Positions 1,257-26,736 of a stretch of 64,000 nt of DNA are shown in pieces. Position numbers and translations under genes: made by a program. Source of the stretch: a bacterium (GTDB taxonomy: Bacteria; Patescibacteriota; Patescibacteriia; UBA2196); assembly GCA_035387885.1 (NCBI GenBank), contig DAOOOW010000003.1:3498-67497 (forward strand), in the 5' to 3' direction. Positions within the stretch are counted from its first letter, which is position 1. Each line of letters opens with the position of its first letter. The notes below the pieces were generated by a model that saw only the letters and a list, made by a program, of their open reading frames with translations, was not told the origin of the DNA and ran no database searches.

Positions 1257-1277
1257 CCTGCCTGCCGGCGAGGCAGG
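1257..1277. repeat. GC-rich palindromic mini-element (family A core cctgcctgccggcgaggcagg)
   Basis: Perfect 7-bp stem cctgcct/aggcagg with a gccggcg centre. Copies sit at 23105-23125 (inverted) and 26089-26109. Confidence 0.7.
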
Positions 1278-1474
1278 GATAAATTCCAGTATTTTAATTT
1301 TGTTTGTAAAGTGCTATACTTTAAATATAAAAACCTGCTCGCCGTAGTGATAATTAGTCGTTATGGAGCGAAGGCGGGTACTTAAATATGACTCATGATA
1401 AATGACTAGATTTAAAAGATAAAATTAGCTCTAATTTTAAAATTGAAGAGTCTAAAAAAGAAACATTAGAAAAT

Positions 1475-1711
1475 GTGTCAGATTCTGTTTGCGAAACTTT
1501 GATTTTTAACGGTCCAAATGGTAAAATAAAGTTAGAGTGGATATCTAAACCCAAAATTTTGGGTGAAAAAACTTTGTATTCCGGTCGGGTGGGCGCTGAT
1601 GTTAAGGTTGAAAAAGTTTATAGTCAAGATGAAAAATCAGAATTTCTTAAGGCCTATCTTTTTAAAGATAATGATTGGCAAGAAATTAATACTCAAAATT
1701 TTAATTTTTAA
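1475..1711 (+). CDS. hypothetical small protein (78 aa)
   Basis: ORF only, no recognisable motif. Confidence 0.35.
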   Translation: MSDSVCETLIFNGPNGKIKLEWISKPKILGEKTLYSGRVGADVKVEKVYSQDEKSEFLKAYLFKDNDWQEINTQNFNF

Positions 1712-1728
1712 ATAATTATTTACTCATT

Positions 1729-1787
1729 AGTTTTGACTTTTGAGTTTTGACTTTTGAGTTTTGACTTTTGAGTTTTTTATTATGTTC
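1729..1787. repeat. tandem repeat, 14-bp unit ttttgagttttgac x about 4
   Basis: Directly visible tandem array immediately upstream of a small membrane-peptide ORF. Confidence 0.7.
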
Positions 1788-1934
1788 ATCGGCACAATTT
1801 TATTCATTACAGGTTTGGCGTTTTTGTTAAAAAATTTGGGCATCCTTTCTGGTGTTACCTGGTCATTTATTTGGCCAGTGGTTATTATGCTCATTGGTTT
1901 ATCCATGATTATTAACAAAAAGAAATTAGTCTAG
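1782..1934 (+). CDS. small hydrophobic peptide (50 aa, 2 predicted TM)
   Basis: ATG at 1782, sequence MFIGTILFITGLAFLLKNLGILSGVTWSFIWPVVIMLIGLSMIINKKKLV. It is not in the ORF track because it is under 60 aa. The antisense track ORF 1727..1918 is probably spurious. Confidence 0.35.
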   Translation: MFIGTILFITGLAFLLKNLGILSGVTWSFIWPVVIMLIGLSMIINKKKLV

Positions 1935-1991
1935 CTTATTTTTAAATTAATTTGTTAACTCGTTAATTAATTAACTTGTTAATTAAGTTTT

Positions 1992-3617
1992 ATGTTAGAT
2001 CAAAAAAATTTAGAAGCAGTACCTCAAAATACTGTTGGCTCAACAGTTAGTTCAGAAACCAACATACCTTTAAAAATAATCAAAGAACTTTTTAAAAATT
2101 CTATTGCTTTAACTTGGTTAAAAAAGTGGCGTTTTATTTTTTTAAATATCATTCCTAAATTAATAGGTTTTTTACCTTTTCTGTTTTTGGGGGTTATTTA
2201 TGCAATTCTAGTATTTCAAGTGGGTTTTTCCAAATCTCTCATCAGTATTTCTCTGGTAGCTGGTTTTTTAGCTATTTTTTGTTTACTTTTTTTAATATCT
2301 TGTGTGTTTTGGTCTCAAAACGCTTATATTAATTATTTACAAACTAATGAAGAATCAAAAAAAACAATTTTAAAAAATAGTCGTAAGAAAGTTTGGAAAT
2401 TTTTTTGGGTTAGTATTTTAAGTGGTTTTATGGCTTTTGGTTATTTAATTTTGTTTTTTATCGTTGCGCCATTATTTTATATTTTTGTATCAACAGCAAC
2501 TATTGGCCTAGTGATTGGCGGTATAGTGTTTTTGGTTTTATTGATTCATGGCATCATCAGGGCCATTAAATTTAGTTTAGCCCCTTTAGCTTATTTAATT
2601 GATGATAAAACTGGTATGTTGGCTATTAAACACAGTGAATTCTTAACTTCTGGTTATCGCTGGGCTATTTTTAAAAGAAGTTTGGTTTTTGGATATTTTC
2701 AATTTGTTATTCAAGTTCTTGTTGGTGTGTTGGTTGTATTGGTGGGTCTACTTTTAGGCTTGGGTGGTTTAATTGGTATTCTTGGCACGATATTAATAAT
2801 AGTTTTATCTTTCATTAATATTTTTATTGGTTTATTGTTGGAACCCTTGGGTTATGTATATAATTTTGATATTTATAATAATTTAAAATTAAATAAACAA
2901 ACTGGTGAATCAAAAGAAAAATATTCTTTAGGACAAAAAATAGTTGTTTTATTGTTAATGATTGTTTTGCCGATTATGGCTATTGGTTTTTCTTTGCTTT
3001 TAAATCTTATTAGTCCTGAAAAAGACAATTTAGATAATAATATTTTTTCTTCTTTTGTTAATCAAATAGCTCCAGGCACCATGGAAAATTCAGCCAATAT
3101 TTTAATTAATTTTGAAGAAGATGATTTAAACACTGTTAGCGATCAACAACAACAAGCCAACGATGAATTGTTAAAAACTCTCAATTCACTAACCGAGGCG
3201 GAGACTGTGACAGCTAACAATCTTTTTGTCAAAACTTATCGATCTATGATGAATGGAGAAAACATACCAGAATTTTCAGAAACAGAATTTCAGTTTTTAA
3301 TTATTATGCAGGGTCTTGATGCCACCCCAATTAATAATTTATCTTTAGAAAAAAAGAAATTTATCTGGAATATTTTTTATGTTGATGGTTTAAAAGAACA
3401 AAATGAACAAATTGATTTAAATGATGATATTAATCAAAATGTCGTTCAAGATAATATCAATCAAGACGTTGATCAAGACGGTCTAACTGATGATTGGGAA
3501 AAATATTATAAAACAGATGTCAACAATCCTGATACAGATGGTGATGGTTATTTTGATGGCGACGAGGTGCAAAATGGTTATGATCCCGCTTTGCCTGGCG
3601 ATGCTAAATTAAAATAA
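1992..3617 (+). CDS. polytopic membrane protein with an acidic C-terminal tail of TSP3-like Ca-binding repeats (DxDxDG)
   Basis: Multiple hydrophobic segments. The C-terminus reads DQDGLTDDW...NPDTDGDGYFDGDE. Confidence 0.55.
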   Translation: MLDQKNLEAVPQNTVGSTVSSETNIPLKIIKELFKNSIALTWLKKWRFIFLNIIPKLIGFLPFLFLGVIYAILVFQVGFSKSLISISLVAGFLAIFCLLFLISCVFWSQNAYINYLQTNEESKKTILKNSRKKVWKFFWVSILSGFMAFGYLILFFIVAPLFYIFVSTATIGLVIGGIVFLVLLIHGIIRAIKFSLAPLAYLIDDKTGMLAIKHSEFLTSGYRWAIFKRSLVFGYFQFVIQVLVGVLVVLVGLLLGLGGLIGILGTILIIVLSFINIFIGLLLEPLGYVYNFDIYNNLKLNKQTGESKEKYSLGQKIVVLLLMIVLPIMAIGFSLLLNLISPEKDNLDNNIFSSFVNQIAPGTMENSANILINFEEDDLNTVSDQQQQANDELLKTLNSLTEAETVTANNLFVKTYRSMMNGENIPEFSETEFQFLIIMQGLDATPINNLSLEKKKFIWNIFYVDGLKEQNEQIDLNDDINQNVVQDNINQDVDQDGLTDDWEKYYKTDVNNPDTDGDGYFDGDEVQNGYDPALPGDAKLK

Positions 3618-3635
3618 AAAATAAAATAATATAAT

Positions 3636-4142
3636 ATGTTAAAAAAACAAAATCCCCATCAACATTTTAAAATGACCGAACGTGATGTCTCACATTTTTT
3701 TTCTTCTCGCAAAAATATAGCCATTTTTGTGGCGGTTGTAATTACGGTTTGCTTTAGCTCTTGGTTTTTAATTAATAATGATAAAACATCAAATTATCAG
3801 ATTGTCGTGCCCGCAGAAAAAAGTTTTAAAGAAAATCAAGATGACGTTAGTTTAAAAGAAAAATATCAAACAGAAGTCAAAAAAATAGTTTTAGACTATT
3901 TGGAGCAGAGAAAAAATATTGCTAAAAATGATTTAGACAATTGTCAGACAATTATTAAGCAAACAGCGGAAAAAATTATGCAGTTGATGGTACCGGCTGA
4001 GTTTAAAAAGTTTCATTTGGAATTAGTGATTGCTGTGGATAAAGAAAATAATTATTGTGTTGATCCGAAGGTTTTTGCCAACCCAGAATCTAATGTAGTT
4101 TGGGATGAATTAAAATTACAAAACGTTTGGTTAAGTCAATAA
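3636..4142 (+). CDS. hypothetical protein with an N-terminal TM anchor
   Basis: ORF in tight + strand operon spacing. One hydrophobic segment. Confidence 0.45.
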   Translation: MLKKQNPHQHFKMTERDVSHFFSSRKNIAIFVAVVITVCFSSWFLINNDKTSNYQIVVPAEKSFKENQDDVSLKEKYQTEVKKIVLDYLEQRKNIAKNDLDNCQTIIKQTAEKIMQLMVPAEFKKFHLELVIAVDKENNYCVDPKVFANPESNVVWDELKLQNVWLSQ

Positions 4143-4148
4143 AATTTT

Positions 4149-4913
4149 ATGCTTTTTTTAAGAAAAATATTTATTTATTTATTAAGTTTAAGTAATTTGT
4201 TATTGTTTTTTTTATTGATTTATAAACCAGAAAAAAATATTTATTGGTTGGGGTTATTTATCATTTTTTTATTTTTTTTAAATCGTTTAGCTAGCGGCAA
4301 TAAACTATCTTTAAAACAATTACTTTATTTTTTTTCTTTTAGTTTAATTTTTAGTTTGGTCAGTGTTATCTTTTTAAGCCTTTTGGAAAATATAATTTTG
4401 AGCTACATTTTTATTTTTTTTATAAATCTTTTTTTGTTATTTTATTTTATTATATTATATACCTATGTTTATCGCCCCGAAGATTATTTAGTGTTTAGTC
4501 TAGTTAATTTTATTAGTTATTTGTCTTTTTGGATTTTTTATTCTTTATTTACAGTTAGTTATGTGTTTGTCAATGTTTTAAATGCTTCCATTTGGTTGGT
4601 AGCTGTATTATTAGTCATATTTTCGTTGACAATTTTAGCTTATAATTTTTCTGTGGAAAATTTGAGTATTAAAAAAAATTGGCGTTATTTTTTAGTCTAT
4701 TCATGCTTAATTGGCGAGTTGAGTTGGTTAATTGCTTGGTTGCCTTGGAATTATTTTGTTAAAGGTTTTTGTTTGGCAACTATAGCCTATTTTGTTTTAT
4801 ATTATATTATTAAAAAAATTAAACATGATTGGTTGGCAAAAAATTTTATTTGGCAGACAGCAGTATTAATATTTTTGATGATTGTAATAGTAGCCACCAC
4901 TCGTTGGTTTTAA
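4149..4913 (+). CDS. polytopic membrane protein, hypothetical
   Basis: Very hydrophobic 254 aa, operonic. Confidence 0.5.
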   Translation: MLFLRKIFIYLLSLSNLLLFFLLIYKPEKNIYWLGLFIIFLFFLNRLASGNKLSLKQLLYFFSFSLIFSLVSVIFLSLLENIILSYIFIFFINLFLLFYFIILYTYVYRPEDYLVFSLVNFISYLSFWIFYSLFTVSYVFVNVLNASIWLVAVLLVIFSLTILAYNFSVENLSIKKNWRYFLVYSCLIGELSWLIAWLPWNYFVKGFCLATIAYFVLYYIIKKIKHDWLAKNFIWQTAVLIFLMIVIVATTRWF

Positions 4914-4928
4914 ATTTTTATATTTTTT

Positions 4929-6149
4929 ATGACACAAAAAAAATTTTCCACCAGAAAAATAAAAGACTGCGAACCATCAGAAAAAAAAGAAGCTTGCCCA
5001 GACGAAACACTAGAGAATTTTTATAATGAATTTCTAGAAAAACCTATTAGAAAAAAACAAATAAATTTAATTTGGTTTTTATTTTTAACTGTAATTTTAA
5101 GTTTTTTGGCTAGTATGACTATGTTTTTTTTGTTTCTTTCTGATACATTTTACGATTCCAAAATTTCTACTTGGTTGGGTGTTGAACCCGTAACCCACAA
5201 CAATATTGTAGTTGAAAAAAAAGAAACTTATAATATAGCTGAAGAAGAATATTTAACCAACTTGCTTAAAGAAATTAAGCCAACCAGTGTGGGCATTTTT
5301 TTGCAAGATACAAAGAATAAAACTGAATATTATCAAAATGCAAATTTTGTAGGCAGTGGTATGATTATGACTAGCGACGGCTGGATAGTTACGGCCAAAA
5401 GTCTCTTAAATACTAAAAATAGTTACGTGGTTATTGATCAAAATAGCAAAATTTATCAAGTTTTAGATATTAAAATTGATGAGACTTGGGAGGTGGCCTA
5501 TTTGAAAATCGAAGCTAATAATTTGCCGGTTATGTCTTTAGCAGAATTTAACAATGTGAACCAAGGCGATAGAGTTATTTTAATAACCGGAGTCAATGGT
5601 ATTAATAGTAAAACTATCACTAGTAGAATCGCTGATGCACGCTTAGTTTTAGATAAAGAATATATTCGAGAAACTGAAAAAAATTATTTATATTTTGAAT
5701 TGGCAAGCAAGAAAAATGAAAATATATTTGTTGGTGCGCCTGTAGTTAATTATAAAAAAGAAGTAGTAGGAATTTTATTAAATAACGGTGAAGTTGATTA
5801 TGTGTTACCGGCTAGTTATCTTAAAAAACATTTTAACATGTTATTAACGCTTAAAAAATACATTCCAGCTTTTTTAGGTTTGGAATACATAGATTTAGCG
5901 GCTAATCTTAATCAAGAAACACCCACAGGGGTTTTGGTTGTTAATGTAAAAAATAATTCTCCCTTACTTAAAACATCCATAACTAAAGGCACGATCATTT
6001 TGAAAGTAGGTGATGATTTGCTTAATGTTAATAATAATTTTTCTAATTTAATTCAAGAATATCGAGTGGGTGATAAAATTAATTTGACATATTTAGATAA
6101 AAATTCTGAATCTTCAGTAGAAAAAACTTTAGGTGTCGAACTAAAATAA
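4929..6149 (+). CDS. HtrA/DegP-like trypsin-fold protein with a C-terminal PDZ domain. Catalytic triad apparently lost.
   Basis: Block GSGMIMTSDGWIVTAKSLL aligns to HtrA GSGFII..GYILTNNHVV with H changed to K/S. EVAYLKIE stands in for DIAVLKI. FVGAPVVN stands in for GNSGGPLVN with the Ser lost. A PDZ-like stretch GVLVVNVKNNSPL follows. Confidence 0.55.
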   Translation: MTQKKFSTRKIKDCEPSEKKEACPDETLENFYNEFLEKPIRKKQINLIWFLFLTVILSFLASMTMFFLFLSDTFYDSKISTWLGVEPVTHNNIVVEKKETYNIAEEEYLTNLLKEIKPTSVGIFLQDTKNKTEYYQNANFVGSGMIMTSDGWIVTAKSLLNTKNSYVVIDQNSKIYQVLDIKIDETWEVAYLKIEANNLPVMSLAEFNNVNQGDRVILITGVNGINSKTITSRIADARLVLDKEYIRETEKNYLYFELASKKNENIFVGAPVVNYKKEVVGILLNNGEVDYVLPASYLKKHFNMLLTLKKYIPAFLGLEYIDLAANLNQETPTGVLVVNVKNNSPLLKTSITKGTIILKVGDDLLNVNNNFSNLIQEYRVGDKINLTYLDKNSESSVEKTLGVELK

Positions 6150-6155
6150 TTTTTT

Positions 6156-7073
6156 ATGGTTAATAAAAAAAATAAAATTTATCAATGGTTCTTGCCTCAC
6201 GAAGATAATGGTTATAAGCCACATTCTTTAAGACATAAAAGTTTGGCCATTTATTCTAGTATTTTGATAAGCGTGAAAATTTTAGTCGCTTTTATTCTTC
6301 TTTTAAGTTATCCAAGTCCAGCGGAATTTTCCACCATTACCATTAATAGGATAGTCGAATTAACCAATCAAGAAAGAATAAAAAATGGTTTGCCGGCTTT
6401 AGAACATAATTCTGTTTTGAATTTGGCAGCTGATAAAAAAGCGCAAGACATGTTGCAAAATAATTATTTTGCTCACACATCACCTGCAGGAATTAAACCC
6501 TGGTTTTGGTTTAATGAGGTTAAATATAATTATACATATGCTGGAGAGAATTTGGCCATGAATTTTATTGAAGCCGAAGATGCTCTTGGGGCCTGGATGA
6601 ATTCTCCAAGTCATAGGGAAAATATTTTGTCAAAAAATTTTGAAGATATTGGCATTGGAGTAGCGGTTGGACAAATTAATGGTATGGAAACAACTATTGT
6701 GGTGCAAATGTTTGGTAAAACTTATACTAAAGTAGCTGGTGAATCTTTTGTGCCGACTTCAGAACCGAATCCTGTAGAACAAATAACTGGCCAGCCCACT
6801 TTGGGCGAAGAAGCCTCACAAAAAGAAGTGCGATTAGAAGCCGTTAATAATCAAGGCTGGATGACTAAATTAATTTATTATTCCGAAAGATTTTTTATAG
6901 TTTTCTTGGCCTTTATTTTAATTAATTTGTTGTTGACAATTATTGTCAGAGTGGAAATTCAACATAAACCAATAATTTTACACAGTTTGTTTGTAATTTT
7001 ATTGGCTTTAGTTATGATTTTTATTAAATTTCATTTTATAGAACAGATAGGGCGTGATTTAAATATCATATAA
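6156..7073 (+). CDS. CAP/SCP (PR-1, YkwD-like) domain protein with N- and C-terminal TM segments
   Basis: Motifs HRENIL, GENLA and FAHTSP are typical of the CAP domain. Confidence 0.7.
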   Translation: MVNKKNKIYQWFLPHEDNGYKPHSLRHKSLAIYSSILISVKILVAFILLLSYPSPAEFSTITINRIVELTNQERIKNGLPALEHNSVLNLAADKKAQDMLQNNYFAHTSPAGIKPWFWFNEVKYNYTYAGENLAMNFIEAEDALGAWMNSPSHRENILSKNFEDIGIGVAVGQINGMETTIVVQMFGKTYTKVAGESFVPTSEPNPVEQITGQPTLGEEASQKEVRLEAVNNQGWMTKLIYYSERFFIVFLAFILINLLLTIIVRVEIQHKPIILHSLFVILLALVMIFIKFHFIEQIGRDLNII

Positions 7074-7090
7074 ATAATAATATAATATTT

Positions 7091-8365: not shown

Positions 8366-8367
8366 TT

Positions 8368-9636: not shown

Positions 9637-9704
9637 AATATTGTTTGATAAAAGGCAAGAGCACAATTTTTATGCTAATATGTTAAAATGTTATATATGA
9701 TTTT

Positions 9705-10406: not shown

Positions 10407-10409
10407 ATT

Positions 10410-11141: not shown

Positions 11142-11176
11142 TTTTTAAATTAAGATTGACAAGAATTTAATTTTTT

Positions 11177-15835: not shown

Positions 15836-15839
15836 TTCG

Positions 15840-16032
15840 CTCCTACGAGCAAATGGAACATCAAAAACCATTGGCGCTATTGTTCGCGACTATAAAATCG
15901 GTGTAACCAAATGGACGCGTGCCAATAGCAATATTATGGCAACGTAATTATTTTGAACACATTATTAGATCAGAAAGATCTTTATTTGATATTCGTAATT
16001 ATATTTTAAATAATCCCTATAATTGGGCATAG
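15840..16032 (+). pseudogene. IS200/IS605-family (RAYT-like, COG1943) tyrosine transposase C-terminal remnant, frameshifted
   Basis: Frame 0 reads KTIGAIVRDYKIGVTKWTR, then a +1 shift gives WQRNYFEHIIRSERSLFDIRNYILNNPYNW. This is the conserved RAYT/TnpA(IS200) C-terminal signature. The N-terminal catalytic half is missing. Confidence 0.6.
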
Positions 16033-16059
16033 AGTGTTTGTATTGTAGGGGCGCCCTTT

Positions 16060-17511
16060 GTGGGTGCCCAAAATATTATGAAAATTGATTTTAAAAAAAA
16101 ATTTTTACAAATAAAAAAATATTTAGATAAACACTTTTTTGTTTTTTCTTTTATTATATTATTGGTGGTTGGAATTTTAATATATTTACCAACCCTGCAA
16201 ATTGATTTTTTATCAGACGATTGGGGCTATGCTTATTTAGCTAAAAACAACGCCCCACAAGATGCTCTTAAATATTTTTATCAAACAGATATTGATGGTA
16301 ACGGCATTGGTAATTTTAGACCACTAGAAAGTTTTTTGGTTATTCTTGTATGGAAACCATTTCTTAATAATCCTTATTTTATACATTTAATGGCAATTAT
16401 TATGCATATAATAGTTGCTTTTTTAGTTGGTTTTTTATTTCATATAATTTTTAAAGATAAAAAAAGCAGTTTAATAAGTGCTTTTTTATTTTTACTCTTT
16501 CCCTTAAACATGGAAGTGGTTTGTTGGTTGTGTAGCAGTTGGAACACTTTGCCAGCTATTATTTTTTTATTATTGTCCATAATTTTTTATTGTCGAGACG
16601 GTGCTACAAAACATAAAATTATTTTTATGTATTTTTTTGTTATTTTGTCACTTTTAGCTAAAGAGTTTGCTTTATTAATACCCATAATTACTTTTTTCAT
16701 AGATTTATTGTTAAAAAGAAAACCTCATTGGCTACTTATTATTAGTTTTGTAATTTTAGATTTAATATATTTTTTTGCTCGCTTTTTATATCTGGGTCAG
16801 TTGGGTGGCTATACTGATCTTGGGGGTCAATCTTTACATACTCAATTTAGCTTAATAGGTTTAGTTTCATTTATAAAATTACCAATAGTTTATGTTGTTA
16901 ACTTTTTTAATTGGCTACTGGTGCCAGGATGGTTAAAATATTCAGCTGCAATTTTAATTTTTATTTTAATTTTATATTTTATAATTTTATTTTTTACAAA
17001 AAAAGATATTAATAAAAAACAAATCTTAAAAAATATTTTTATTTTATTTATACTTATTTATATTGGATCGGCGTTAGCCTGGAATTTAATCAACCCATTA
17101 TCTAAAATCAATATTCATTCCCGCCTTTATTATTTAAGCAACGTTTGGTTTGTGTTTTTATTGGGTTATTTATTTTTGATTATGAAAAATAATAAGATTT
17201 TTAAAACTTTATATATTTTATATTTAATATGTTTAATAAGTATAAGTTATTATCAAATGCAGCCATGGTTAATAGCTAATGAAAAAACTAAGGAAATAAA
17301 TTTTCTTATAAATAATGTTTTAAAAAATAATGAATCGAAAAAAAAACTGGAGATTATAAATTTGTCAGATGCTTATCAAAATGCTTATATTTATCGCAAC
17401 GGCATAGATTCGGCAGTTGCTTTAATTAATAATTATAAAAAAGATGATATAATTATAGAAAAGAAAATGCAAGCATCAGTTGATTTACCAATAATAGTAA
17501 ATATAAAATAA
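16060..17511 (+). CDS. polytopic membrane protein, possible GT-C-type glycosyltransferase
   Basis: 483 aa and very hydrophobic, with an FLSDDWGYAY loop. The true start is probably MKIDF at 16078. Confidence 0.4.
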   Translation: MGAQNIMKIDFKKKFLQIKKYLDKHFFVFSFIILLVVGILIYLPTLQIDFLSDDWGYAYLAKNNAPQDALKYFYQTDIDGNGIGNFRPLESFLVILVWKPFLNNPYFIHLMAIIMHIIVAFLVGFLFHIIFKDKKSSLISAFLFLLFPLNMEVVCWLCSSWNTLPAIIFLLLSIIFYCRDGATKHKIIFMYFFVILSLLAKEFALLIPIITFFIDLLLKRKPHWLLIISFVILDLIYFFARFLYLGQLGGYTDLGGQSLHTQFSLIGLVSFIKLPIVYVVNFFNWLLVPGWLKYSAAILIFILILYFIILFFTKKDINKKQILKNIFILFILIYIGSALAWNLINPLSKINIHSRLYYLSNVWFVFLLGYLFLIMKNNKIFKTLYILYLICLISISYYQMQPWLIANEKTKEINFLINNVLKNNESKKKLEIINLSDAYQNAYIYRNGIDSAVALINNYKKDDIIIEKKMQASVDLPIIVNIK

Positions 17512-17525
17512 AAATATAATTAATT

Positions 17526-17549
17526 TTAATCAATAAAATTATTGATTAA
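17526..17549. promoter_or_regulatory. perfect 11-2-11 inverted repeat ttaatcaataa-aa-ttattgattaa upstream of mscL
   Basis: Seen directly. It ends 12 nt before the mscL ATG. Confidence 0.3.
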
Positions 17550-17560
17550 CTACAAAACTT

Positions 17561-17863
17561 ATGAAAGGCTTTATAAATTTTATTAGAGAACAAGGAGTCG
17601 TGGGTTTGGCTGTTGGTTTTATACTTGGTGGCGCAGTTTCTAAAGTGGTTTCTTCATTGGTCACCGACATTATCAATCCAATTCTGGGCATTATTCTTGG
17701 AACTGCCGGCGGATTAAAAAATGCTGTCTGGAAAGTTGGTTCCATAAGTATTTTGTATGGTGATTTGATTGCTGTGATTATTGATTTTTTGGTTATAGCT
17801 TTTGTGGTTTATTTCGGGGTTAAAATGTTAGGTATTGATAAATGGGACAAAAAGAAAGAATAG
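17561..17863 (+). CDS. mscL: large-conductance mechanosensitive channel MscL
   Basis: FINFIREQGVVGLAVGFILGGAVSKVVSSLVTDIINP aligns to the MscL TM1 and N-terminal region. Confidence 0.85.
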   Translation: MKGFINFIREQGVVGLAVGFILGGAVSKVVSSLVTDIINPILGIILGTAGGLKNAVWKVGSISILYGDLIAVIIDFLVIAFVVYFGVKMLGIDKWDKKKE

Positions 17864-17894
17864 TTTTTTGTTTAAGAATTAAAAAAATGTTTTT

Positions 17895-17923
17895 TTGACA
17901 AAATCTTTTCTTTTTGGTATAAT
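17895..17923 (+). promoter_or_regulatory. sigma70-type promoter for rnpB (TTGACA-17-TGgTATAAT)
   Basis: Consensus -35 and extended -10 with a 17-nt spacer, about 10 nt upstream of the RNase P RNA 5' end. Confidence 0.55.
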
Positions 17924-17933
17924 AAAAATCGTT

Positions 17934-18329
17934 CAAGGCGGGTGAACGGCTGCCCCGATGAGCGCAAGCAATATTGGGGAGGAAAGTCCGGACATTATAA
18001 AAAATGGTAGTCGCGAAATGCGACCAGGCATAAGAATTACTAAAAAAATAAATCACGATCGTGTTATTTTTTAAGGACAAATTCAAAACCTCGAGACAGT
18101 GCCACAGAGACAATAATAGTCCCGCATTTGCGGGATCAAAGGTGAAAAGTGAATTGGTGTTGATTTTAATCAGCTACAATTCTCGCCCAATGGTGACATT
18201 GGTGCGTGGCAAACCTTACCTAATGCAATCCCTATGGGGAGCTTAGATAGATAGTCGTATTTATTCGTAATATTCGCTTTTATTAGCAATATTCGAATAA
18301 AACAGAATCCGGCTTATGATCCCGCCTTG
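17934..18329 (+). ncRNA. rnpB: RNase P RNA (bacterial type A)
   Basis: GGGAGGAAAGTCCGGAC P4 strand. AGTGCCACAGAGACA...GCGGGATCAAAGGTGAAA matches the E. coli J11-12/P12 region. 3' ACAGAATCCGGCTTAT P4 strand. P1 pairing caaggcggg/cccgccttg. Confidence 0.85.
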
Positions 18330-18346
18330 GACAAATAAAATTTAAT

Positions 18347-19735: not shown

Positions 19736-19753
19736 AATTAAAATTAGTGTTAA

Positions 19754-19781
19754 AAAAACGGTTTTAAATACCGTTTTTTTG
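19754..19781 (+). terminator. rho-independent terminator
   Basis: aaaacggt-tttaaat-accgtttt followed by a T-run. Confidence 0.6.
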
Positions 19782-19864
19782 CCTTTTGTTTACTCTCTTG
19801 CTAAGATAAAATAAGTTTTCCACAACAATAATCTTAATATTCTGACACTTTTTAACACTACTTT

Positions 19865-20944
19865 ATGAAAGTCGCTCTCATCAACGACATGCTTGTTCAA
19901 GAAGGCGGACAAGAAAGAGTTCTGCGCGCCTTGCAAGAAATATTTCCAGAAAGTCCAACCTTTGTGTTGTTTTATGATGTTAAAAATAAAGAAAGATATT
20001 ATCAAAAAAAAGAAATTGTTTCCAGTTTTTTGCAAAGATTTCCTCAAATAGAAACCAGATATCAGTGGATGTTGCCCTTAATGTCCACGGCTATTGAATC
20101 TTTAGATTTAAGAGAATATGATTTAATTATTTCTTCAAGCTCTTCTTTTGCTAAAGGAGTTTTGGTAAAACCTGAAGCTAAACATATTTGTTATTGTCAT
20201 ACGCCGACGAGATTTTTATGGTCAGAGTGGCATGAATATATTGGCGATTTGCGCTATCCTAAATTTATTAAAAAAATATTGCCATTTTATTTATCACAAT
20301 TACGCAGTTGGGATTATAATGCAGCTCAAAGAGTAGATTATTTTTTAGCTAATTCCAAAACCGTAGCCGATAGAATAAAAAAATATTATAATCAAGATTC
20401 CGCCATAATTTTTCCACCAGTAGATACTGAAAAATATTTTATTGCCGAGCCTAAAAATTATTATTTAATTGGCGGTAGGCTTGTGCCTTACAAAAGATAC
20501 GACTTAGCTGTCAAAGCTTTTAATAAGTTAAACATACCTTTAAAAATTTTTGGCCTAGGATCAGAATATGCTTATTTAAAATCTATTGCTAAAAATAATA
20601 TTGAATTTTTGGGTGAAGTTTCTGAAAACGAAAAAATTCGCCTTTATAGCGAAGCTCTTGCTTTTCTAAATCCCGGTGAAGAAGATTTTGGTATAACTAT
20701 GATTGAATCTTTAGCTTCTGGTCGACCAGTCATTGCCTATAATAAAGGCGGGGCAAAAGAAACAATTAAAGCAGGGGAGACTGGAGTTTTTTTTAATCAC
20801 CAAACCTGGGAAAGTTTGGCTAATACCATTATTCATTTTCAACCAGAAAAATTTAATAGCCAACAAATTAAACTTCACGCCGAACAGTTTAATAAAAAAA
20901 GATTTAAAAATGAAATGAAATCTTTTCTTGACAAGATTATTTAA
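19865..20944 (+). CDS. GT4 family glycosyltransferase
   Basis: C-terminal EDFGITMIESLASGRPVIA...GETG motif (GT-B, GT4). Confidence 0.8.
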   Translation: MKVALINDMLVQEGGQERVLRALQEIFPESPTFVLFYDVKNKERYYQKKEIVSSFLQRFPQIETRYQWMLPLMSTAIESLDLREYDLIISSSSSFAKGVLVKPEAKHICYCHTPTRFLWSEWHEYIGDLRYPKFIKKILPFYLSQLRSWDYNAAQRVDYFLANSKTVADRIKKYYNQDSAIIFPPVDTEKYFIAEPKNYYLIGGRLVPYKRYDLAVKAFNKLNIPLKIFGLGSEYAYLKSIAKNNIEFLGEVSENEKIRLYSEALAFLNPGEEDFGITMIESLASGRPVIAYNKGGAKETIKAGETGVFFNHQTWESLANTIIHFQPEKFNSQQIKLHAEQFNKKRFKNEMKSFLDKII

Positions 20945-20956
20945 TTATATACAACT

Positions 20957-21403
20957 TCACCTCTCGGCTTTATCAATAAAAAGCACTCCGTCTAAATGAT
21001 CAATTTCGTGTTGAAAAACCCTAGCCAGTAAATCCTTGGCTTTTATTTTTTGCTTTTTTGCTTCTAAATTTAAAAATTCTACTTCCACTCCATAATGTCT
21101 TTTAACCAACATAAAAATATCTGGCAAAGACAAACAACCTTCTTCGCCAATTTTTTTACGCCAAGATTTTTTTAAAATTTTAGGATTAATAAAAGCCATC
21201 ACCCCATCTTCAGAATTAACCACAATTAAGCGGATGTTTTTGCCAACCTGTGGCGCGGCCAAACCCACGCCATCTTTTTCTAACATGGTTTTGGCCATAT
21301 CTTTGACCAATTTTTTAAAATCTGCACGCAAAATCTCTTCATGTTTTATTTCACGAGATTTTTTTCTCAAAATTGGATTGGGGTGAGTGATTATTTTTAA
21401 CAT
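20957..21403 (-). CDS. def: peptide deformylase
   Basis: GLAAPQVG, EGCLS and HEIDHLDG motifs. Confidence 0.9.
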   Translation of the reverse strand: MLKIITHPNPILRKKSREIKHEEILRADFKKLVKDMAKTMLEKDGVGLAAPQVGKNIRLIVVNSEDGVMAFINPKILKKSWRKKIGEEGCLSLPDIFMLVKRHYGVEVEFLNLEAKKQKIKAKDLLARVFQHEIDHLDGVLFIDKAER

Positions 21404-21408
21404 GTCCG

Positions 21409-21539
21409 TAGTTTATCCCGAGCGATTAGTCGAGGGATCTCATTTAGAATTAAAAGTGATTTGTAATTAATGTATTTTTTATGCAGAACACGGGATCCCT
21501 CGGCTCATAACGACCAAAAAAGTCGCTCGGGATAAACTA
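21409..21539. repeat. MITE-like element with perfect 17-bp terminal inverted repeats (tagtttatcccgagcga / tcgctcgggataaacta) and an inner IR cgagggatc/gatccctcg
   Basis: Seen directly. 131 bp lying between the priA stop and the def start. Confidence 0.55.
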
Positions 21540-21545
21540 AAAAAA

Positions 21546-23471
21546 TTAATTTATTTTCTCAGGATTTATATCTAGCATAACATTTTTTGGCAGATTATTC
21601 AAAATTTTATCCAAAGTAATATCTAATGGAATTTTGGCAATCAAATTAAATTTAAAGTTTTTGTTTTGATGAGTATCTGGCAATGGTCCAAGAAGTTCTA
21701 TTTTTTCATCAATATTTTTAATAAATTCCGATATTTTTTTTAAAGAATTTTTTACTAATAATTCTTTTTTATCAGTGGCTATAAATTTAACCAATTGCGA
21801 AAATGGTGGATAATTAAAGTCTTGTCTAGTTTGCAATTCAGAATTATAAAATATTTCTGGCTTATTTTCTTTAATACTTTGGATGACTAAATTTTCTGGT
21901 ATATTAGTTTGTAAAACAAAATCAGCGTTATTATGAGCCGAAAAAATATTATAAAACAGCTGATAAGCCTTTTCCTCGGCTCGAAAATCACCAATATTTA
22001 ACAATTGATCAAAATTAATAAAAGCAATCAAAGCAAATTCCTTTAAATCTATTTTATTAATAACAAATCTGGTGCCAATAATTATCTGGTAATCAGCTGT
22101 TGTTTTGTGTTCCAACTTATCCAACTCTAAAATCTTGGCTTCTGGCAAAAGTTTTTGTAATTCACTTTTAACTTTTTGTGTACCCGCGCCCTTAAAATTT
22201 ATATTAATCCCGGAACATTTTGGACAAAATGGTGACATGTCTTCATGGTATTTACACCAAGAACAAACCAATTGCTTTTTTTTATTTTCATAAGCCAAAT
22301 TATTAGCACATTTTGGACATTTAAAAACATATTCACAATCTTGACAATTGACTAATTTAGCAAAACCAATACGATTATGAAACAAAAATATTTTCTGCTT
22401 ATTATTTAGTTTTTCTTTTATATTTGCTAATAATTTATCAGAAATGGGATTATAATTGCCACCCTGTCTTTCATTTTTTAAATTGACTATGCTGACAACT
22501 GCCTTTGGCCCAATGTTGCCACCTTTTTTGTCATCCTCGCGGAAGCGAGAACCCAGAAATTTTATTTTATTTGCAAATTTTTTTTTCTGGATTCCAGCTT
22601 TCGCTGGAATGACAGCCAAATTGTAAGTTTCTAAATTTGGTGCTGTCGTAGTCAAAACTAATTCCGCTCCAAAATTTTCCGCTAGCCATTCTGCCACATC
22701 TCTGGCGTCAAATCTTGGATTTGCTTCAGATTGTTTGTGATTCCAACTCTCGGCGTTTAAAATTATAAGATGTTTTAAATTAACAAACGGTAAAAAAACA
22801 GCAATTTTTGTCCCGATAATAATTTTATTTTTATTATTTAAAACATTTTGCCAAGTCTGGAAATAATCTGATTTTTTAATTTGACTATGAACAATAGCCA
22901 CATCTTTTTCTTTTACAGAACAATTGATTATTATTTTTTTAATTAAAGAAATTTCTGGTATTAAAATTAAAATTTGTTCTTTATTTTTTAAAGCCAATTT
23001 TATTTTTTCTTTAATTAAATTTTCTACTTCTGAAATATCCCGATACCATAATAATTGTGCTTTCTTTTTATTGTTTTTAATTTTTATATTTTTTTTCTGA
23101 TTTCCCTGCCTCGCCAGCAGGCAGGTGCTGGCGTATTTTGAATTTTTTTTAGGTAGATTCGGTACTAATGTTTTGGCTAAGCCAGTTAAAGAGCTGCCGG
23201 TTGATTGAGCTATAAATTTTATTAATTCAATTTGTTTGGCATTAATAATTGGTAATAGAGTAATAATTTTTATAATTTTTTTTAATTTAAAATGATAAAT
23301 TGGTTTTTTATTTTCTAAACCAATTATTAAACCATTAATTTTTTTATGCCCAAAATCTATAGCTACAATTTGGCCCAAAGAAATTACATTTTCCAATTCT
23401 AAAGGCACGGTATAGGAAAAAAAATCCAAACTGGCTGGTAATTTTAAAAGTGGAATAATTTGTGCTATCAT
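21546..23471 (-). CDS. priA: primosomal protein N' (PriA) homolog with degenerate helicase motifs
   Basis: PriA Cys-rich zinc region CQDCEYVFKCPKCAN...CSWC...CPKCSG. ILILIPEISL aligns to VMVPEIGL and IIGTKIAVFLPF to IGTRSALFTPF. Walker A is replaced by YRDISEVENLI and DEEHD by NAESWN. Confidence 0.8.
   Translation of the reverse strand: MIAQIIPLLKLPASLDFFSYTVPLELENVISLGQIVAIDFGHKKINGLIIGLENKKPIYHFKLKKIIKIITLLPIINAKQIELIKFIAQSTGSSLTGLAKTLVPNLPKKNSKYASTCLLARQGNQKKNIKIKNNKKKAQLLWYRDISEVENLIKEKIKLALKNKEQILILIPEISLIKKIIINCSVKEKDVAIVHSQIKKSDYFQTWQNVLNNKNKIIIGTKIAVFLPFVNLKHLIILNAESWNHKQSEANPRFDARDVAEWLAENFGAELVLTTTAPNLETYNLAVIPAKAGIQKKKFANKIKFLGSRFREDDKKGGNIGPKAVVSIVNLKNERQGGNYNPISDKLLANIKEKLNNKQKIFLFHNRIGFAKLVNCQDCEYVFKCPKCANNLAYENKKKQLVCSWCKYHEDMSPFCPKCSGININFKGAGTQKVKSELQKLLPEAKILELDKLEHKTTADYQIIIGTRFVINKIDLKEFALIAFINFDQLLNIGDFRAEEKAYQLFYNIFSAHNNADFVLQTNIPENLVIQSIKENKPEIFYNSELQTRQDFNYPPFSQLVKFIATDKKELLVKNSLKKISEFIKNIDEKIELLGPLPDTHQNKNFKFNLIAKIPLDITLDKILNNLPKNVMLDINPEKIN
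22530..22613. repeat. 84-bp palindromic element (gtcatcc family) inserted in-frame in priA
   Basis: Arms gtcatcctcgcggaagcgagaacccagaaa and tttctggattccagctttcgctggaatgac. Translates to ...IPAKAGIQKKKFANKIKFLGSRFREDDKKGG... Confidence 0.6.
23105..23125. repeat. family A palindromic mini-element (inverted copy) in-frame in priA
   Basis: cctgcctcgccagcaggcagg. The extended 33-bp match to 1246-1278 is in reverse orientation. Translates to TCLLARQGNQ. Confidence 0.65.
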
Positions 23472-23772
23472 AAAATTATCTTATCGTGTTTGTTGGTTTA
23501 ATGGCTCTGCCTGCCCCGCATCTGCGGTGGCCTTGAACCATTTTGTTCCTTCAGTAAAACTCGTTTATTACTTTGAGGCATTAAGGTTCAAAGTAGAGCT
23601 TTGAATCAACGTTGAGGTGGTTATGCTTTGCCGATAGGCGTTATTTACTATTCCAATTTTAACATTTTACAGCTAACTTGTATAATGGTATAATATAAAC
23701 AATTCTTAATTATTAATTTTGAATTTTGAATGTCATGGTTTATTTTTATTAAAAATTAAAAATTATAATTAT

Positions 23773-24789
23773 ATGCCTACAAAAAAACCCATCCGCCTAG
23801 CTATTAATGGTTTTGGTCGTATTGGCCGAGCCGCTTTTAAAATCGCTTTGGAAAACCTCAAGTTTCAAGTGGTGGCTATTAATGATCTAACAGATAATGC
23901 CACTTTGGCCCATTTATTAAAATATGATTCTGTCTATGGTGTTTATAATCACGAGATTAAAAGTGATGAGGACAATATTTATGTTGACCAAGTTAAATAT
24001 CCCTCTTTTTCCATAAAAGATTTAGAACAATTATCTTGGCAAGATTTGCAAGTGGACGTGGTTTTAGAATGCACTGGAAAATTTGTTAAAGATAGTGTGG
24101 CTTCTGGTCATATTAAGGCTGGTGCTAAAAAAGTTATTTTATCAGCTCCGTCAAAAGGCACGCCCAAAGCACCAACCTATTTAATCGGTGTTAATGAAGA
24201 TAAATATAAAGGCGAGAGTGTTATTTCCAATGCATCTTGCACCACCAATTGTATTGCCCCAGTGACTAAAGTTATTTTAGATAATTTTGGTATAAAAAAA
24301 GCTTTTCTAAATACTATTCATTCCTATACTGCAGATCAAAATTTGGTTGATGGTCCACATAAAGATTTGCGTCGTGCTCGTAGCGCTGCTTACAATATTA
24401 TACCAACTTCTACTGGCGCGGCTATTGCGGTGACAGAAGTTTTGCCAGAATTAAAAGGTAAATTTGACGGCGTGGCTTTGCGGGTGCCTACAATTTGCGG
24501 TTCTATTTCAGACATTACTTATGTTTTAAAAAAGAAAGCTACCGTTGATAGTGTTAATAAAGCCCTTAAAAAAGCTTCTCTCGCTGCTAAAATGAAAAAT
24601 ATTTTAACAGTTAGTAATGAGCCATTGGTTTCTAGTGATATTATTGGTAATCCAGCTTCTGTAGTTGTGGATTTAGAATCCACCATGATGTTGGGTGAAG
24701 ATTATTTAAAAATTTTAGCTTGGTATGATAATGAATGGGGTTATTCATGTCGCCTTGTTGAAATGGCCGAAGTGGTCATGAAGAAATAG
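23773..24789 (+). CDS. gap: glyceraldehyde-3-phosphate dehydrogenase
   Basis: INGFGRIGR Rossmann motif and SNASCTTNCIAP active site. Start taken at MPTKKP. The track ORF has a spurious 5' extension. Confidence 0.9.
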   Translation: MPTKKPIRLAINGFGRIGRAAFKIALENLKFQVVAINDLTDNATLAHLLKYDSVYGVYNHEIKSDEDNIYVDQVKYPSFSIKDLEQLSWQDLQVDVVLECTGKFVKDSVASGHIKAGAKKVILSAPSKGTPKAPTYLIGVNEDKYKGESVISNASCTTNCIAPVTKVILDNFGIKKAFLNTIHSYTADQNLVDGPHKDLRRARSAAYNIIPTSTGAAIAVTEVLPELKGKFDGVALRVPTICGSISDITYVLKKKATVDSVNKALKKASLAAKMKNILTVSNEPLVSSDIIGNPASVVVDLESTMMLGEDYLKILAWYDNEWGYSCRLVEMAEVVMKK

Positions 24790-24799
24790 TCCTTTGTTT

Positions 24800-24853
24800 G
24801 TCATCCCCGCCGGTCTCGCCATGAATCAGGCACACAGAGCTGGGATCCCGTGA
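24800..24853. repeat. GC-rich palindromic element (gtcatcc...gggatcc family) just 3' of gap
   Basis: gtcatccccgccgg...gggatcccgtgaa. Related to 27055-27091. Confidence 0.5.
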
Positions 24854-24872
24854 ATATAACATGGAGGTTAAT

Positions 24873-25037
24873 ATGTTTTATATAGCATATTATTTATTAA
24901 TTTTGGTTGTTTGTTGCATTATTTTTTTGATTATGATTTTTGGTATTATGTTTTGGAGGTTTAAAATAGCCAAAACACAAACGGAAAAAATTTTTTCACT
25001 AAAAAAGCCACTCAGCAGAGTGGCTTTTTATGTCTAA
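24873..25037 (+). CDS. small hydrophobic peptide (54 aa, one TM, basic C-terminus)
   Basis: GGAGG RBS 6 nt upstream. MFYIAYYLLILVVCCIIFLIMIFGIMFWRFKIAKTQ... The 3' end runs through hairpin DR1. Confidence 0.3.
   Translation: MFYIAYYLLILVVCCIIFLIMIFGIMFWRFKIAKTQTEKIFSLKKPLSRVAFYV
25005..25026. repeat. hairpin direct repeat DR1 (aagccact-cagcag-agtggctt)
   Basis: 8-bp stem, 6-nt loop, followed by a T-run. Near-identical copy at 25511-25532. Confidence 0.7.
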
Positions 25038-25073
25038 CTTTAGCTAAAATATTTTGCTATACATAACTTTTGC

Positions 25074-25100
25074 TTGACAAATCTCTCTCTCTGCTATAAT
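25074..25100 (+). promoter_or_regulatory. near-consensus sigma70 promoter TTGACA-N15-TGcTATAAT with a (CT)5 spacer
   Basis: Seen directly. A GGGAGGG Shine-Dalgarno sits at 25164-25170. Confidence 0.6.
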
Positions 25101-25173
25101 GGAAATATCAAAAAAGATATACATTGTTACAGTAAATGCAATGAGCAATAAATCTAACTCCTAGGGAGGGATT

Positions 25174-25497
25174 ATGTCAAAAGTGAAAGCAAGAGAGGTG
25201 TTGTCAGTAAGTAAACACGGTCCTGACTACCACTGGTTTCATCTGGTAGTCAACGGGCTGCAAACACTGACGGTTTCTGATGCTGCAGCGGTATGGATCG
25301 TAGATGATACGGTTCATAAGACCACTGCAATTATCACCAGAGCTTGGGAAAAGTATGATGATCAAAAAGATCTCGTTGTTAAACGGGCTAAAATCACTGG
25401 CCCGGAGTTTCAAATCCTGAATCTTCTAAGTAGCCTTGGGATGGGGACTCCTGAAGTCGCAGCTATTCCTTGGCAAAAAAATGAAGATGCTGTGTAA
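25174..25497 (+). CDS. hypothetical protein (107 aa) on a compositionally foreign cassette
   Basis: GC is about 45-50% against about 28% in the flanks. Codon usage differs (ctg/ggc/acg rich). Strong promoter and RBS. Flanked by hairpin direct repeats. Confidence 0.6.
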   Translation: MSKVKAREVLSVSKHGPDYHWFHLVVNGLQTLTVSDAAAVWIVDDTVHKTTAIITRAWEKYDDQKDLVVKRAKITGPEFQILNLLSSLGMGTPEVAAIPWQKNEDAV

Positions 25498-25510
25498 TCT
25501 TCGTCTTGAA

Positions 25511-25532
25511 AAGCCACTCAACAGAGTGGCTT
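25511..25532. repeat. hairpin direct repeat DR2 (aagccact-caacag-agtggctt)
   Basis: Differs from DR1 by one loop base. Also serves as a bidirectional terminator between the cassette and the convergent GT gene. Confidence 0.7.
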
Positions 25533-25548
25533 TTGTATTTAATATTTT

Positions 25549-26736
25549 TTATTCCTGGTAGACTTTTTCCGTCTCTCTCAGCATTTTTTCCAAGCTAAAA
25601 TTTTTTATTTTTTCCAAATTATTGTGGCTGAATTTTTCTGCCAATTTTGGATCATCCAAAATTTTTTCTAAAGCCCTAGTAATTTCTCTGGGTTTTTCTT
25701 TGTTAACTATTAGACCATTAGCATCTTGTTCAACAATTTCTAACATGCCTCCAACAGAGGTGGCCACAACAGGTAATCCAGCAGCCATGGCTTCCATAAC
25801 AGAATAGGAAAAACCTTCTTTAACAGAGGGCAAACAAAAAATATCAAAAGCTTTTAAAAGTTCATAAGCTTTATCAATATTACCAACAAGAAAAAAAACA
25901 TTCTCTAAATTTAATTGCTTAATTTCACGTTCTAGGTTTTTTCTTTGTCCACCTTCACCAATAACTATAAAAATAACTTGTGGATTTTTTTCTTTTAAAA
26001 TTTTGGCTGCTCGAATTAAGTAAATTAGACCTTTGGTGGCATATAAATTGGCAATAGTGCCAATAAGTGGTGAGTAATCCCTAATTTGCCTGCCTGCCGG
26101 CGAGGCAGGTAATCTGTAATTGGTAATTAATGTTTTTCTAGCTTCAGATTTTTCTAAAAAATTTAATTTAGTTAAATCAATACCGTTGTGAATAGTAATA
26201 AATTTATGATGGGGAGCTATTTTGTGATTTAAACCAGTGATTTTATCTAATTCGGAAACACAAATGATTTTATCTTTAAAATGTCCAGATATTCTTTCAG
26301 ACCATTGGTAAAATAATTTTCTACCAAGAGATATTGGTTCGTTAAACACAAAACCATGAACAGTATAAATTATTTTGACTTTTTTACCACTTATCTTTTT
26401 ATAAAGCCAGCCCATAACTGCGCCGGTCGAGCCAATTTTACTGGAATTTAAATGAATAATATCTGGTTGAGATTTTTCAAGTAGCCGATAAATTTCTAAG
26501 CCTGATAAAAAATCATGCCAGAGATTTATTTCTCTGACAACATGTTTAAGTCGCCAAACTTTAAAACCCTTTTGAGACAAACTTTCTAGCCAATCAACAA
26601 CGGGGTGTTCTTTTTTTTCTCCGACCGCAATTTCTATAATATATTTATTAGCAGGTAAATTTTCTGCCAAATCAATAATATATTTTTGGGCGCCACCAAA
26701 TTCACTTTGAGTGACAAGATAGAGAATTTTAATCAT
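25549..26736 (-). CDS. GT4 family glycosyltransferase
   Basis: GT-B N-terminal GGAQ motif and C-terminal EGFSYSVMEAMAAGLPVVAT. In-frame family A element at 26089-26109 (PASPAGRQ). Confidence 0.8.
   Translation of the reverse strand: MIKILYLVTQSEFGGAQKYIIDLAENLPANKYIIEIAVGEKKEHPVVDWLESLSQKGFKVWRLKHVVREINLWHDFLSGLEIYRLLEKSQPDIIHLNSSKIGSTGAVMGWLYKKISGKKVKIIYTVHGFVFNEPISLGRKLFYQWSERISGHFKDKIICVSELDKITGLNHKIAPHHKFITIHNGIDLTKLNFLEKSEARKTLITNYRLPASPAGRQIRDYSPLIGTIANLYATKGLIYLIRAAKILKEKNPQVIFIVIGEGGQRKNLEREIKQLNLENVFFLVGNIDKAYELLKAFDIFCLPSVKEGFSYSVMEAMAAGLPVVATSVGGMLEIVEQDANGLIVNKEKPREITRALEKILDDPKLAEKFSHNNLEKIKNFSLEKMLRETEKVYQE
26089..26109. repeat. family A palindromic mini-element, in-frame in a GT4 gene
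   Basis: cctgcctgccggcgaggcagg, identical to 1257-1277. Confidence 0.7.

Follow-up and report, generated by a model that had tools for sequence, protein, structure and literature searches.

How does a GC-rich hairpin of only 21 nucleotides (nt) come to stand three times in AT-rich bacterial DNA, twice within the reading frame of a protein-coding gene? The question is raised by a 64-kb stretch of a patescibacterial genome (assembly GCA_035387885.1, contig DAOOOW010000003.1, positions 3,498 to 67,497; 25–36% GC), here called the window, in which the 21-nt hairpin module, here called Family A, was first noticed. The reading we consider probable is that these hairpins are members of a family of mobile insertions that are very small, non-autonomous and widespread. 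Two of the window copies are exact (CCTGCCTGCCGGCGAGGCAGG): copy 1 lies 24 nt past the stop codon of queH (667–1233, Pfam QueH), and copy 3 is read within a GT4-family glycosyltransferase as ...RLPASPAGRQI.... Copy 2 carries a single mismatch (C10>T) and is read within PriA as ...YASTCLLARQGNQ... (coordinates are collected in Table 1). A scan of the window at ≤3 mismatches recovered these three matches, compared with 0.00 in 100 dinucleotide-preserving shuffles, and a looser scan (≤7 mismatches, five subfamily consensi) gave no fourth copy in the 64 kb. The original prediction, which had been made from the letters of the window, was therefore right as to the three copies and, as both gene readings attest, as to their in-frame placement in priA and the GT4 gene. 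It had also described an extended form of about 33 bp common to copies 1 and 2, and this too was found (CGC(TC)CRGCR, core, GA), at 33 and 31 nt respectively; the 5′ extension (CGCCRGC; CGCCAGCA in copy 2) is able to pair with the core loop to give an alternative hairpin, which in copy 2 is the predicted minimum-energy fold.

Conservation extends over exactly 21 nt: a 7-bp stem, CCTGCCT with AGGCAGG, enclosing a 7-nt loop, RCCGGNN. When one genome per GTDB species was scanned for the exact 21-mer, at least 120 contigs from many phyla were matched, so the hairpin is by no means confined to its three places in the window; and because the flanks are unrelated between loci, it is the 21-mer itself that constitutes the discrete, conserved unit. 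Among the 80 of these contigs that were listed by host there were Patescibacteria of many classes (including the complete genomes CP011215.1 and OY970292.1), cultured Flavobacteriaceae (Dokdonia ponticola, Arenibacter, Zunongwangia pacifica and Aequorivita capsosiphonis), Chitinophagaceae, Bacteroidales, Ignavibacteria, uncultured ‘Gammaproteobacteria’, Elusimicrobia, Omnitrophota, Planctomycetota and Acidobacteriota, and the same 80 included no cyanobacterial host. Leaving the loop free (CCTGCCT-N7-AGGCAGG), a scan of metagenomes yielded 129 sites, 91 of which had an RCCGGNN loop and fell into at least five subfamilies: ACCGGAC (21 sites), GCCGGCA (19), GCCGGAC (14), GCCGGCG, the window sequence (14), ACCGGCA (11) and GCCGGTC (5). 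Given these several loop classes, the window 21-mer is one subfamily of a larger family, in which the stem is near-invariant and variation is concentrated at positions 8, 13 and 14, all in the loop. Copies were usually single in an 8-kb locus. There were no exact copies in 72,556 plasmids, where partial matches occurred at chance level only and in GC-rich taxa, and just three matches in 2.9 million viral contigs. A literature search found the exact 21-mer or its halves in no paper, and nothing relevant on palindromic, in-frame or mobile elements of the candidate phyla radiation (CPR)/Patescibacteria. The 21-mer can itself form tandem arrays: in a metagenome contig of 59% GC (L169) the variant CCTGCCTACCGGCAAGGCAGG stands in head-to-tail tandem, 3 plus 1, at 124–241 and 3635–3752, the block being present twice in inverted orientation, and in L015 two such tandem units are followed by the GCCGGCG form.

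Orthologous genes show that the window copies have been gained. Alignments were made of 22 GT4 and 20 PriA orthologs, and the DNA of syntenic orthologs (GT4–GAPDH–priA) was compared. The motif was absent from 19/19 priA orthologs, in which the site is a variable Lys-rich linker after the 3′BD domain, and from most GT4 orthologs. At the GT4 site the window reads, in the sense of the gene, TAC AGA TTA [CCTGCCTCGCCGGCAGGCAGG] CAA ATT AGG GAT TAC, where the syntenic GT4–GAPDH locus L121 reads GAT TAT AAA TTA / CAG ATT ACA GAT TAC and is empty, being exactly 21 nt shorter. Elsewhere, the same position holds a decayed copy (L122, CGGATTA[TCTGCCTCGTCGGCAGACAGG]CGGATTA), a loop-variant copy at the same nucleotide (L123, CCTGCCTTGCCGGTAGGCAGG, loop ACCGGCA), a different and larger palindromic element (L124, L256 and L257, CTGGATTCCCG...CGGGAATGAC) or a clean array of four ACAACCT units with no hairpin (L258). 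In a neighbour-joining tree from which the linker columns were left out, the L123 protein falls in a distant clade among hairpin-free orthologs; on account of this position and of its different loop subfamily, the L123 copy is best read as an independent insertion at the same nucleotide position, so that one site would have been used recurrently. As judged from these alignments, the window copies are insertions rather than conserved coding features, since the L121 GT4 gene lacks exactly 21 nt and no priA ortholog carries the motif; the absence from orthologous genes that the original prediction had proposed to look for is thus confirmed for priA and for the L121 GT4 gene.

That the hairpin should instead be a conserved coding feature of PriA and GT4 proteins, or an artefact of assembly or sequencing, has next to no probability. 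Nothing speaks for it except the in-frame position, whereas the ortholog alignments speak against the former and the latter is contradicted by copies from cultured isolates and from eight assemblies made independently. Over the 21 kb compared, ENA contig ERZ27257431:k141_831755 (L128) has the same sequence as the window; seven further assemblies of the same species at ≥99% identity, including GCA_964498445.1, all have the GT4 copy, and PriA is 641 amino acids (aa) long in all three of these assemblies whose locus spans the whole of priA. A separate proposition, that at the common GT4 site the core is far better conserved than the coding flanks, was unsupported (core 86–90%, flanks 74–78%, too few sites).

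Once inside a gene, the module is subject to a coding filter. It amounts to seven codons and is free of stops in all six frames, and 61/124 exact copies lie within open frames of ≥150 aa. Use of the frames is skewed (chi-square 32.5, p=5e-6), the readings being LPAGEAG (22 copies), PASPAGR (19), CLPARQ (6), LPRRQAG (6), CLAGRQ (5) and PACRRGR (3). Such a skew, which favours small and flexible residues at the expense of readings rich in Cys and Arg, marks a filter acting after insertion, in which selection favours the frames rich in Pro, Ala, Ser and Gly (LPAGEAG, PASPAGR). In an AlphaFold model of the window GT4 protein (mean predicted local distance difference test, pLDDT, 85) the insert P210–R216 lies in coil between two Rossmann domains, with pLDDT <50 at residues 211–217. 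The module survives in genes, then, because it adds seven codons, offers no stop in any of the six frames and lands in disordered linkers.

The sequence context of insertion was analysed statistically in 211 non-redundant copies. The heptamers immediately left and right of the element are identical in 14/211 copies (0.07 expected), agree at ≥6/7 positions in 35/211 (0.68 expected) and at ≥5/7 positions in 51/211 (24%; 4.4 expected), and there was no excess for repeat lengths of 6, 8 or 9, nor for boundaries shifted by 1–3 nt. This heptamer register was replicated in the independent metagenome set. The 30 direct-repeat copies of the genome set had an extra heptamer unit on the left in 18 cases and on the right in 20, and multi-unit arrays flank about 60% of direct-repeat copies; the extra units on either side place the element in register within multi-unit degenerate arrays, as in attgcag attgcag attgtag [core] attgcag attgaaa.... 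Copy 3 splits an array of this kind in the window, which in the GT4 sense runs ...AATTACA GATTA^CA AATTAGG GATTAC. The flanking heptamers are wholly different between loci (gatattg, tccgtag, gaccttg, agtgaaa...), and period-7 arrays are over-represented in these loci (29, vs 10 of period 6 and 3 of period 8). The idea that association with heptamers is a general property of GC-rich hairpins was rejected, since 530 others from the same DNA do not show it.

Family A is also found nested in other palindromes. In 24 copies (7.7 expected) the flanks pair with each other over ≥5 bp, among the nested contexts being TACGCT[core]TTCGCGAAAGCGTA, in several Flavobacteriaceae, GTCATTGCGAGCGA[core]AGCGAAGCAATC and GTCATCCCGAC...[core]...GTCGGGATGAC. 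The preferred targets of the element are junctions between heptamer units, in register, and the interiors of other palindromes, although 64% of copies are in neither context. Insertion is polar, a purine preceding the element: the base at −1 is G or A in 114/127 main-subfamily copies and, with the element in forward orientation, the near flanks have G over C in 100 vs 53 copies. In five flavobacterial loci that are not orthologous (L038, L055, L112, L049 and L018) the 21-mer lies within the palindrome TACGCTTTCGCGAAAGCGTA at one of two fixed positions, after CGCT or after CGCG, a recurrence that points either to the palindrome as a favoured target or to joint spread of the two as a composite unit.

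Such contexts could be taken to mean that no dedicated enzyme is involved, and that the 21-mer spreads passively through template switching, slipped-strand errors and gene conversion between arrays and larger repeats. Tandem heptamer arrays are slippage-prone, 21 nt equals three heptamers, the 21-mer is carried in larger local repeats (L001, L047 and L108), composites such as the TACGCT one recur in several Flavobacteriaceae, and no transposase was found. However, homology of the flanks cannot explain entry into new arrays, because the heptamers differ completely between loci; nor does passive spread sit well with the majority of copies that are in neither context, with nucleotide-exact boundaries and a purine at −1, or with the lack of heptamer association in other GC-rich hairpins. 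Passive processes account for local spread but do not explain entry into arrays of unrelated sequence, and as a general explanation we rate them unlikely.

Insertion as a mobile unit leaves the question of what happens at the target. The 7-bp stems are readable as the terminal inverted repeats, and the 7-nt repeats as the target site duplication, of a miniature inverted-repeat transposable element; yet the flanks are mostly multi-unit, and at the GT4 site the occupied allele exceeds the empty one by 21 nt, with a heptamer array of 27 nt in both. A 7-nt duplication would have meant +28 nt, which would break the reading frame. Because the GT4 gain is +21 and not +28, and because most flanking repeats are multi-unit arrays, we favour insertion between pre-existing array units without net duplication, on one clean case. 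The module would be inserted as a unit by an activity supplied in trans, which would recognise the hairpin together with a structured, or a slipped or extruded single-stranded, target.

The original prediction had filed the hairpins with the repetitive extragenic palindromic (REP) sequences and the Rickettsia palindromic elements (RPEs), and had pointed to a remnant of a RAYT (REP-associated tyrosine transposase) or IS200-like enzyme in the window as the kind of enzyme that mobilises them. A frameshifted C-terminal RAYT-like fragment is indeed present at about 15866–16032 (+), matching NCBIfam NF047646 (E=3.8e-8) over profile positions 92–131 of 146 at a score below the curated cut-off and without a Pfam match; its sequence is found in the eight independent same-species assemblies (≥99% identity) and it is therefore not an assembly artefact. 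The role of mobiliser found no support, the fragment being degenerate and flanked by other hairpins. It adjoins not the 21-mer but a different hairpin at 16048–16069 (GGGCGCCC/GGGTGCCC), which may be its own REP-like partner, and it is unlikely to be the enzyme that mobilises Family A.

A REP or REPIN-type element mobilised by a RAYT, that is, by an HUH Y1 transposase of which the window fragment is the decayed remains, would account for a palindrome that is short and GC-rich although the genome around it is AT-rich, and for the presence of the fragment, and the polar flank preference would fit a strand-specific HUH nuclease. REPs form two superfamilies, one GTAG-tagged and RAYT-associated, the other CGTC-tagged, and they can be intragenic, sometimes in linkers (PMC3733652). 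Like them, Family A consists of short, GC-rich, dispersed and non-autonomous palindromes. Against such an origin, there is no GTAG or CGTC tag in the 21-mer or its flanks, which are unconserved apart from the purine at −1; no inverted REPIN doublets were seen in the loci examined; in the window no cognate RAYT is flanked by the 21-mer (no REPtron); copies are few per locus; and location is not predominantly extragenic, half of the exact copies and 2/3 of the window copies being genic. REP–RAYT pairs are described in a preprint as lineage-specific and mostly vertically inherited (bioRxiv 10.1101/2022.05.22.493013), whereas the same 21-mer occurs in several phyla. REPs are not characterised by in-register heptamers, and orientation shows no GC-skew bias. 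We regard this origin as improbable, somewhat more so than passive spread.

With Rickettsia RPEs, Family A has in common that palindromic insertions are tolerated in frame in essential genes, on surface loops. RPE-1-type elements are about 100–150 nt long and are not known outside Rickettsia; Family A, at 21 nt, is much shorter, and its hosts include Patescibacteria, Bacteroidota and further phyla. RPE-4 and RPE-6, which are short, belong to the CGTC superfamily of REPs (PMC3733652). What holds of the original filing is the description, namely palindromic insertions tolerated in frame, present in many copies and absent from orthologs. Membership of either class does not hold for a 21-nt hairpin that is untagged, half intragenic, multi-phylum and set among heptamers: Family A is not a member of REP/RAYT or RPE families.

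Alternatively, the hairpin might be a functional cis-element under selection, such as a terminator, an RNA-stability hairpin or a protein-binding site, with its intragenic copies accidental. The near-invariance of the stem, with variation at loop positions 8, 13 and 14, would suit such a role, as would the place of copy 1 shortly after a stop codon. But none of the three window copies is followed by the T-run of a terminator, Rfam has no match at or near the copies at gathering or permissive thresholds, the hairpin has a modest folding energy (−6 to −7 kcal/mol, z about −2), open reading frames (ORFs) hold about half of the copies, in both orientations, and a single GT4 site is occupied by one hairpin family or another in different orthologs. 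Selection for a function in cis is accordingly a very improbable explanation.

Among known repeats, the closest analogue of Family A is the set of small dispersed repeats SDR4, SDR5 and SDR6 of the Nostocaceae, which are hairpin-forming, 21–27 nt long and precisely inserted at small defined targets, as Family A is a hairpin of 21 nt with a 7-bp stem and a 7-nt loop. To our knowledge, mobile DNA as small as 21 nt has been described essentially once, in these Nostocaceae, and has never been explained. In the account of Elhai 2008, SDRs reportedly lie within tandem heptameric repeats and are also nested in repeats of other kinds, with no encoded transposase or known mechanism. The in-register heptamer repeats (51/211) and nesting (24 copies) of Family A would correspond to these features that SDRs are said to have, and the empty orthologous site in L121 and the independent occupation in L123 may be compared with SDR behaviour as well. 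SDR5 inserts between nt 3 and 4 of HIP1 (PMC4390886), a preference for which the position of Family A between array units is a parallel. The likeness is one of behaviour, and there are differences: SDR-like repeats have been reported in Nostocaceae only and as absent elsewhere (PMC5861425), whereas the same Family A sequence is found in Patescibacteria, Bacteroidota and other phyla, with frequent in-frame intragenic copies and frame selection. No description of such elements outside cyanobacteria was found in the literature search. By analogy, Family A may be described as an SDR-like family of very small mobile hairpins with an unexpectedly broad, multi-phylum distribution.

A more distant likeness is to the GC clusters and byp elements of yeast mitochondria, which likewise are small, GC-rich and palindromic, multiply in a genome that is AT-rich and can lie within coding sequence. 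These are eukaryotic and organellar, 30–55 nt long and of other sequence, and whereas the ribosome skips byps, it reads through Family A in frame. As to the targets, heptanucleotide arrays are the most abundant class of long simple sequence repeat, and arrays of TAACTGA, common to Beggiatoaceae, Cyanobacteria and Bacteroidetes, are unexplained; such period-7 arrays, including the short tandemly repeated repetitive (STRR) sequences of cyanobacteria, sometimes lie in ORFs at domain boundaries (PMC4679880; PMC4692102). The window arrays (TAACTGG/TAATTGG on the reverse strand) resemble TAACTGA, although heptanucleotide arrays are the target or context of Family A and not the hairpin itself.

Several observations weigh against a mobile origin. 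No mobilising gene lies near the copies, and larger local repeats carry the 21-mer without a transposase: the genes beside repeat-borne copies (L001 and L108) are all of housekeeping or phage-like kinds (Bro-N, SWIM, saccharopine dehydrogenase, PPDK), and a search for a parent insertion sequence bounded by the half-sites CCTGCCT...AGGCAGG found none, only pairs of complete elements. The eight strain-level assemblies (≥99% identity) show no presence/absence polymorphism and so give no sign of recent movement. Each genome seems to hold few copies, and an ordinary element bound to one lineage would hardly be expected to keep an identical 21-mer across phyla. The argument against duplication comes from the single GT4 case. 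Orientation relative to the GC skew of the locus is unbiased (83 vs 76), which leaves transposition through single-stranded DNA of the lagging strand without support. With these points taken into account, a family of very small non-autonomous mobile insertions is still the probable explanation. A bolder proposition, possible but doubtful in our estimation, is that 21-nt modules of 7+7+7 architecture, identical across at least two and probably at least eight phyla, are inserted by conserved machinery specifically at heptamer unit junctions and inside palindromes; if this were true, hairpins and heptamer arrays would be two products of one widespread process that also builds disordered linkers, and heptamers could be explained as the most over-represented long simple sequence repeats in bacteria.

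The same behaviour (exact boundaries, in-register heptamer arrays, nesting and independent insertions at one site) in ultra-small Patescibacteria and in cultivable marine Flavobacteriaceae makes the phenomenon a general one, and Family A connects it with the excess of heptanucleotide repeats that bacterial genomes show without explanation. In culturable hosts (Dokdonia, Zunongwangia, Arenibacter, Aequorivita) the mechanism could be trapped experimentally. For annotation, Family A means that essential proteins acquire lineage-specific inserts of 7 aa (PASPAGR, LPAGEAG) and that metagenome protein catalogues are seeded with spurious ‘hypothetical’ peptides.

Table 1. Family A copies, their host genes and heptamer arrays in the 64-kb window.
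Feature	Position	Strand	Description
Family A copy 1	1257..1277	+	exact 21-mer; stem CCTGCCT, loop GCCGGCG, stem AGGCAGG; intergenic
Family A copy 2	23105..23125	-	loop GCTGGCG; in frame, priA Lys-rich linker after 3′BD domain
Family A copy 3	26089..26109	+	exact 21-mer, antisense to GT4 gene; encodes PASPAGR, residues 210–216, interdomain linker
Extended form, copy 1	1247-1279		33 nt
Extended form, copy 2	23103-23133		31 nt
Host gene priA	21546..23471	-	PriA_3primeBD, PriA_C, zinc ribbon
Host gene GT4 glycosyltransferase	25549..26736	-	
Degenerate heptamer array split in register by copy 3	26082..26130	+	TAATTTG / core / TAATCTG TAATTGG TAATTAA
Unoccupied heptamer array	34150..34181	+	ACCAATT/ACCAGTT, 4.6 units; equivalent linker of a paralogous glycosyltransferase
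Unoccupied heptamer array	39792..39820	+	GAATTAA, 4.1 units; linker of another glycosyltransferase paralog
Unoccupied heptamer array	1731-1776		TTTTGAC; intergenic
Heptamer array	28006-28026		TAATTTT

The GT4 gene belongs to a cluster (19865–43000) of at least seven GT4-type paralogs with a radical SAM enzyme, GtrA and a sugar transferase, in which three linkers contain heptamer arrays or hairpin inserts. The ACCAATT/ACCAGTT array is the type of target used by Family A. Both this and the GAATTAA array lie in frame in interdomain linkers, and since slippage by one unit would shift the frame, they could be phase-variation switches for surface glycosylation.

Other hairpin elements occur close to the Family A copies. 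priA contains a second, unrelated insertion of 84 nt (22530–22613, −), with termini GTCATTCC...GGATGAC and an internal hairpin (ATTCCAGCGAAAGCTGGAAT), which encodes VIPAKAGIQ...FLGSRFREDDK; in the loop where it stands, priA orthologs have other hairpin-derived peptides (CHSERSEES...LLRMT, LPASLAQVGQAGK) or nothing. A neighbouring glycosyltransferase gene (26793–28022) holds at 27055–27091 (+) the sequence GTCATCCCGACGA[TCCGCCAACCGGCGGA]CGGGATCC, an element of GTCATCCCGAC type with a nested hairpin of 16 nt. In L026 and L006 the same outer element holds the Family A 21-mer in place of the 16-nt hairpin, so that the hairpins look like interchangeable modules. A further GC-rich element, GTCATCCC...GGGATCCC, lies directly past the GAPDH stop codon (24801–24856, +), and an inverted repeat of 56 nt (24987–25042 and 25495–25550), whose core AAAAGCCACTC(A/AA)CAGAGTGGCTTTT is a terminator-like hairpin, flanks a small ORF at 25174–25497. 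The sole Rfam match in the window is an RNase P RNA of class A (RF00010, 131 bits) at 17934–18333 (+), which explains the GC-rich island at 17936–17966 and overlaps a spurious ORF at 17820–18113 (−).

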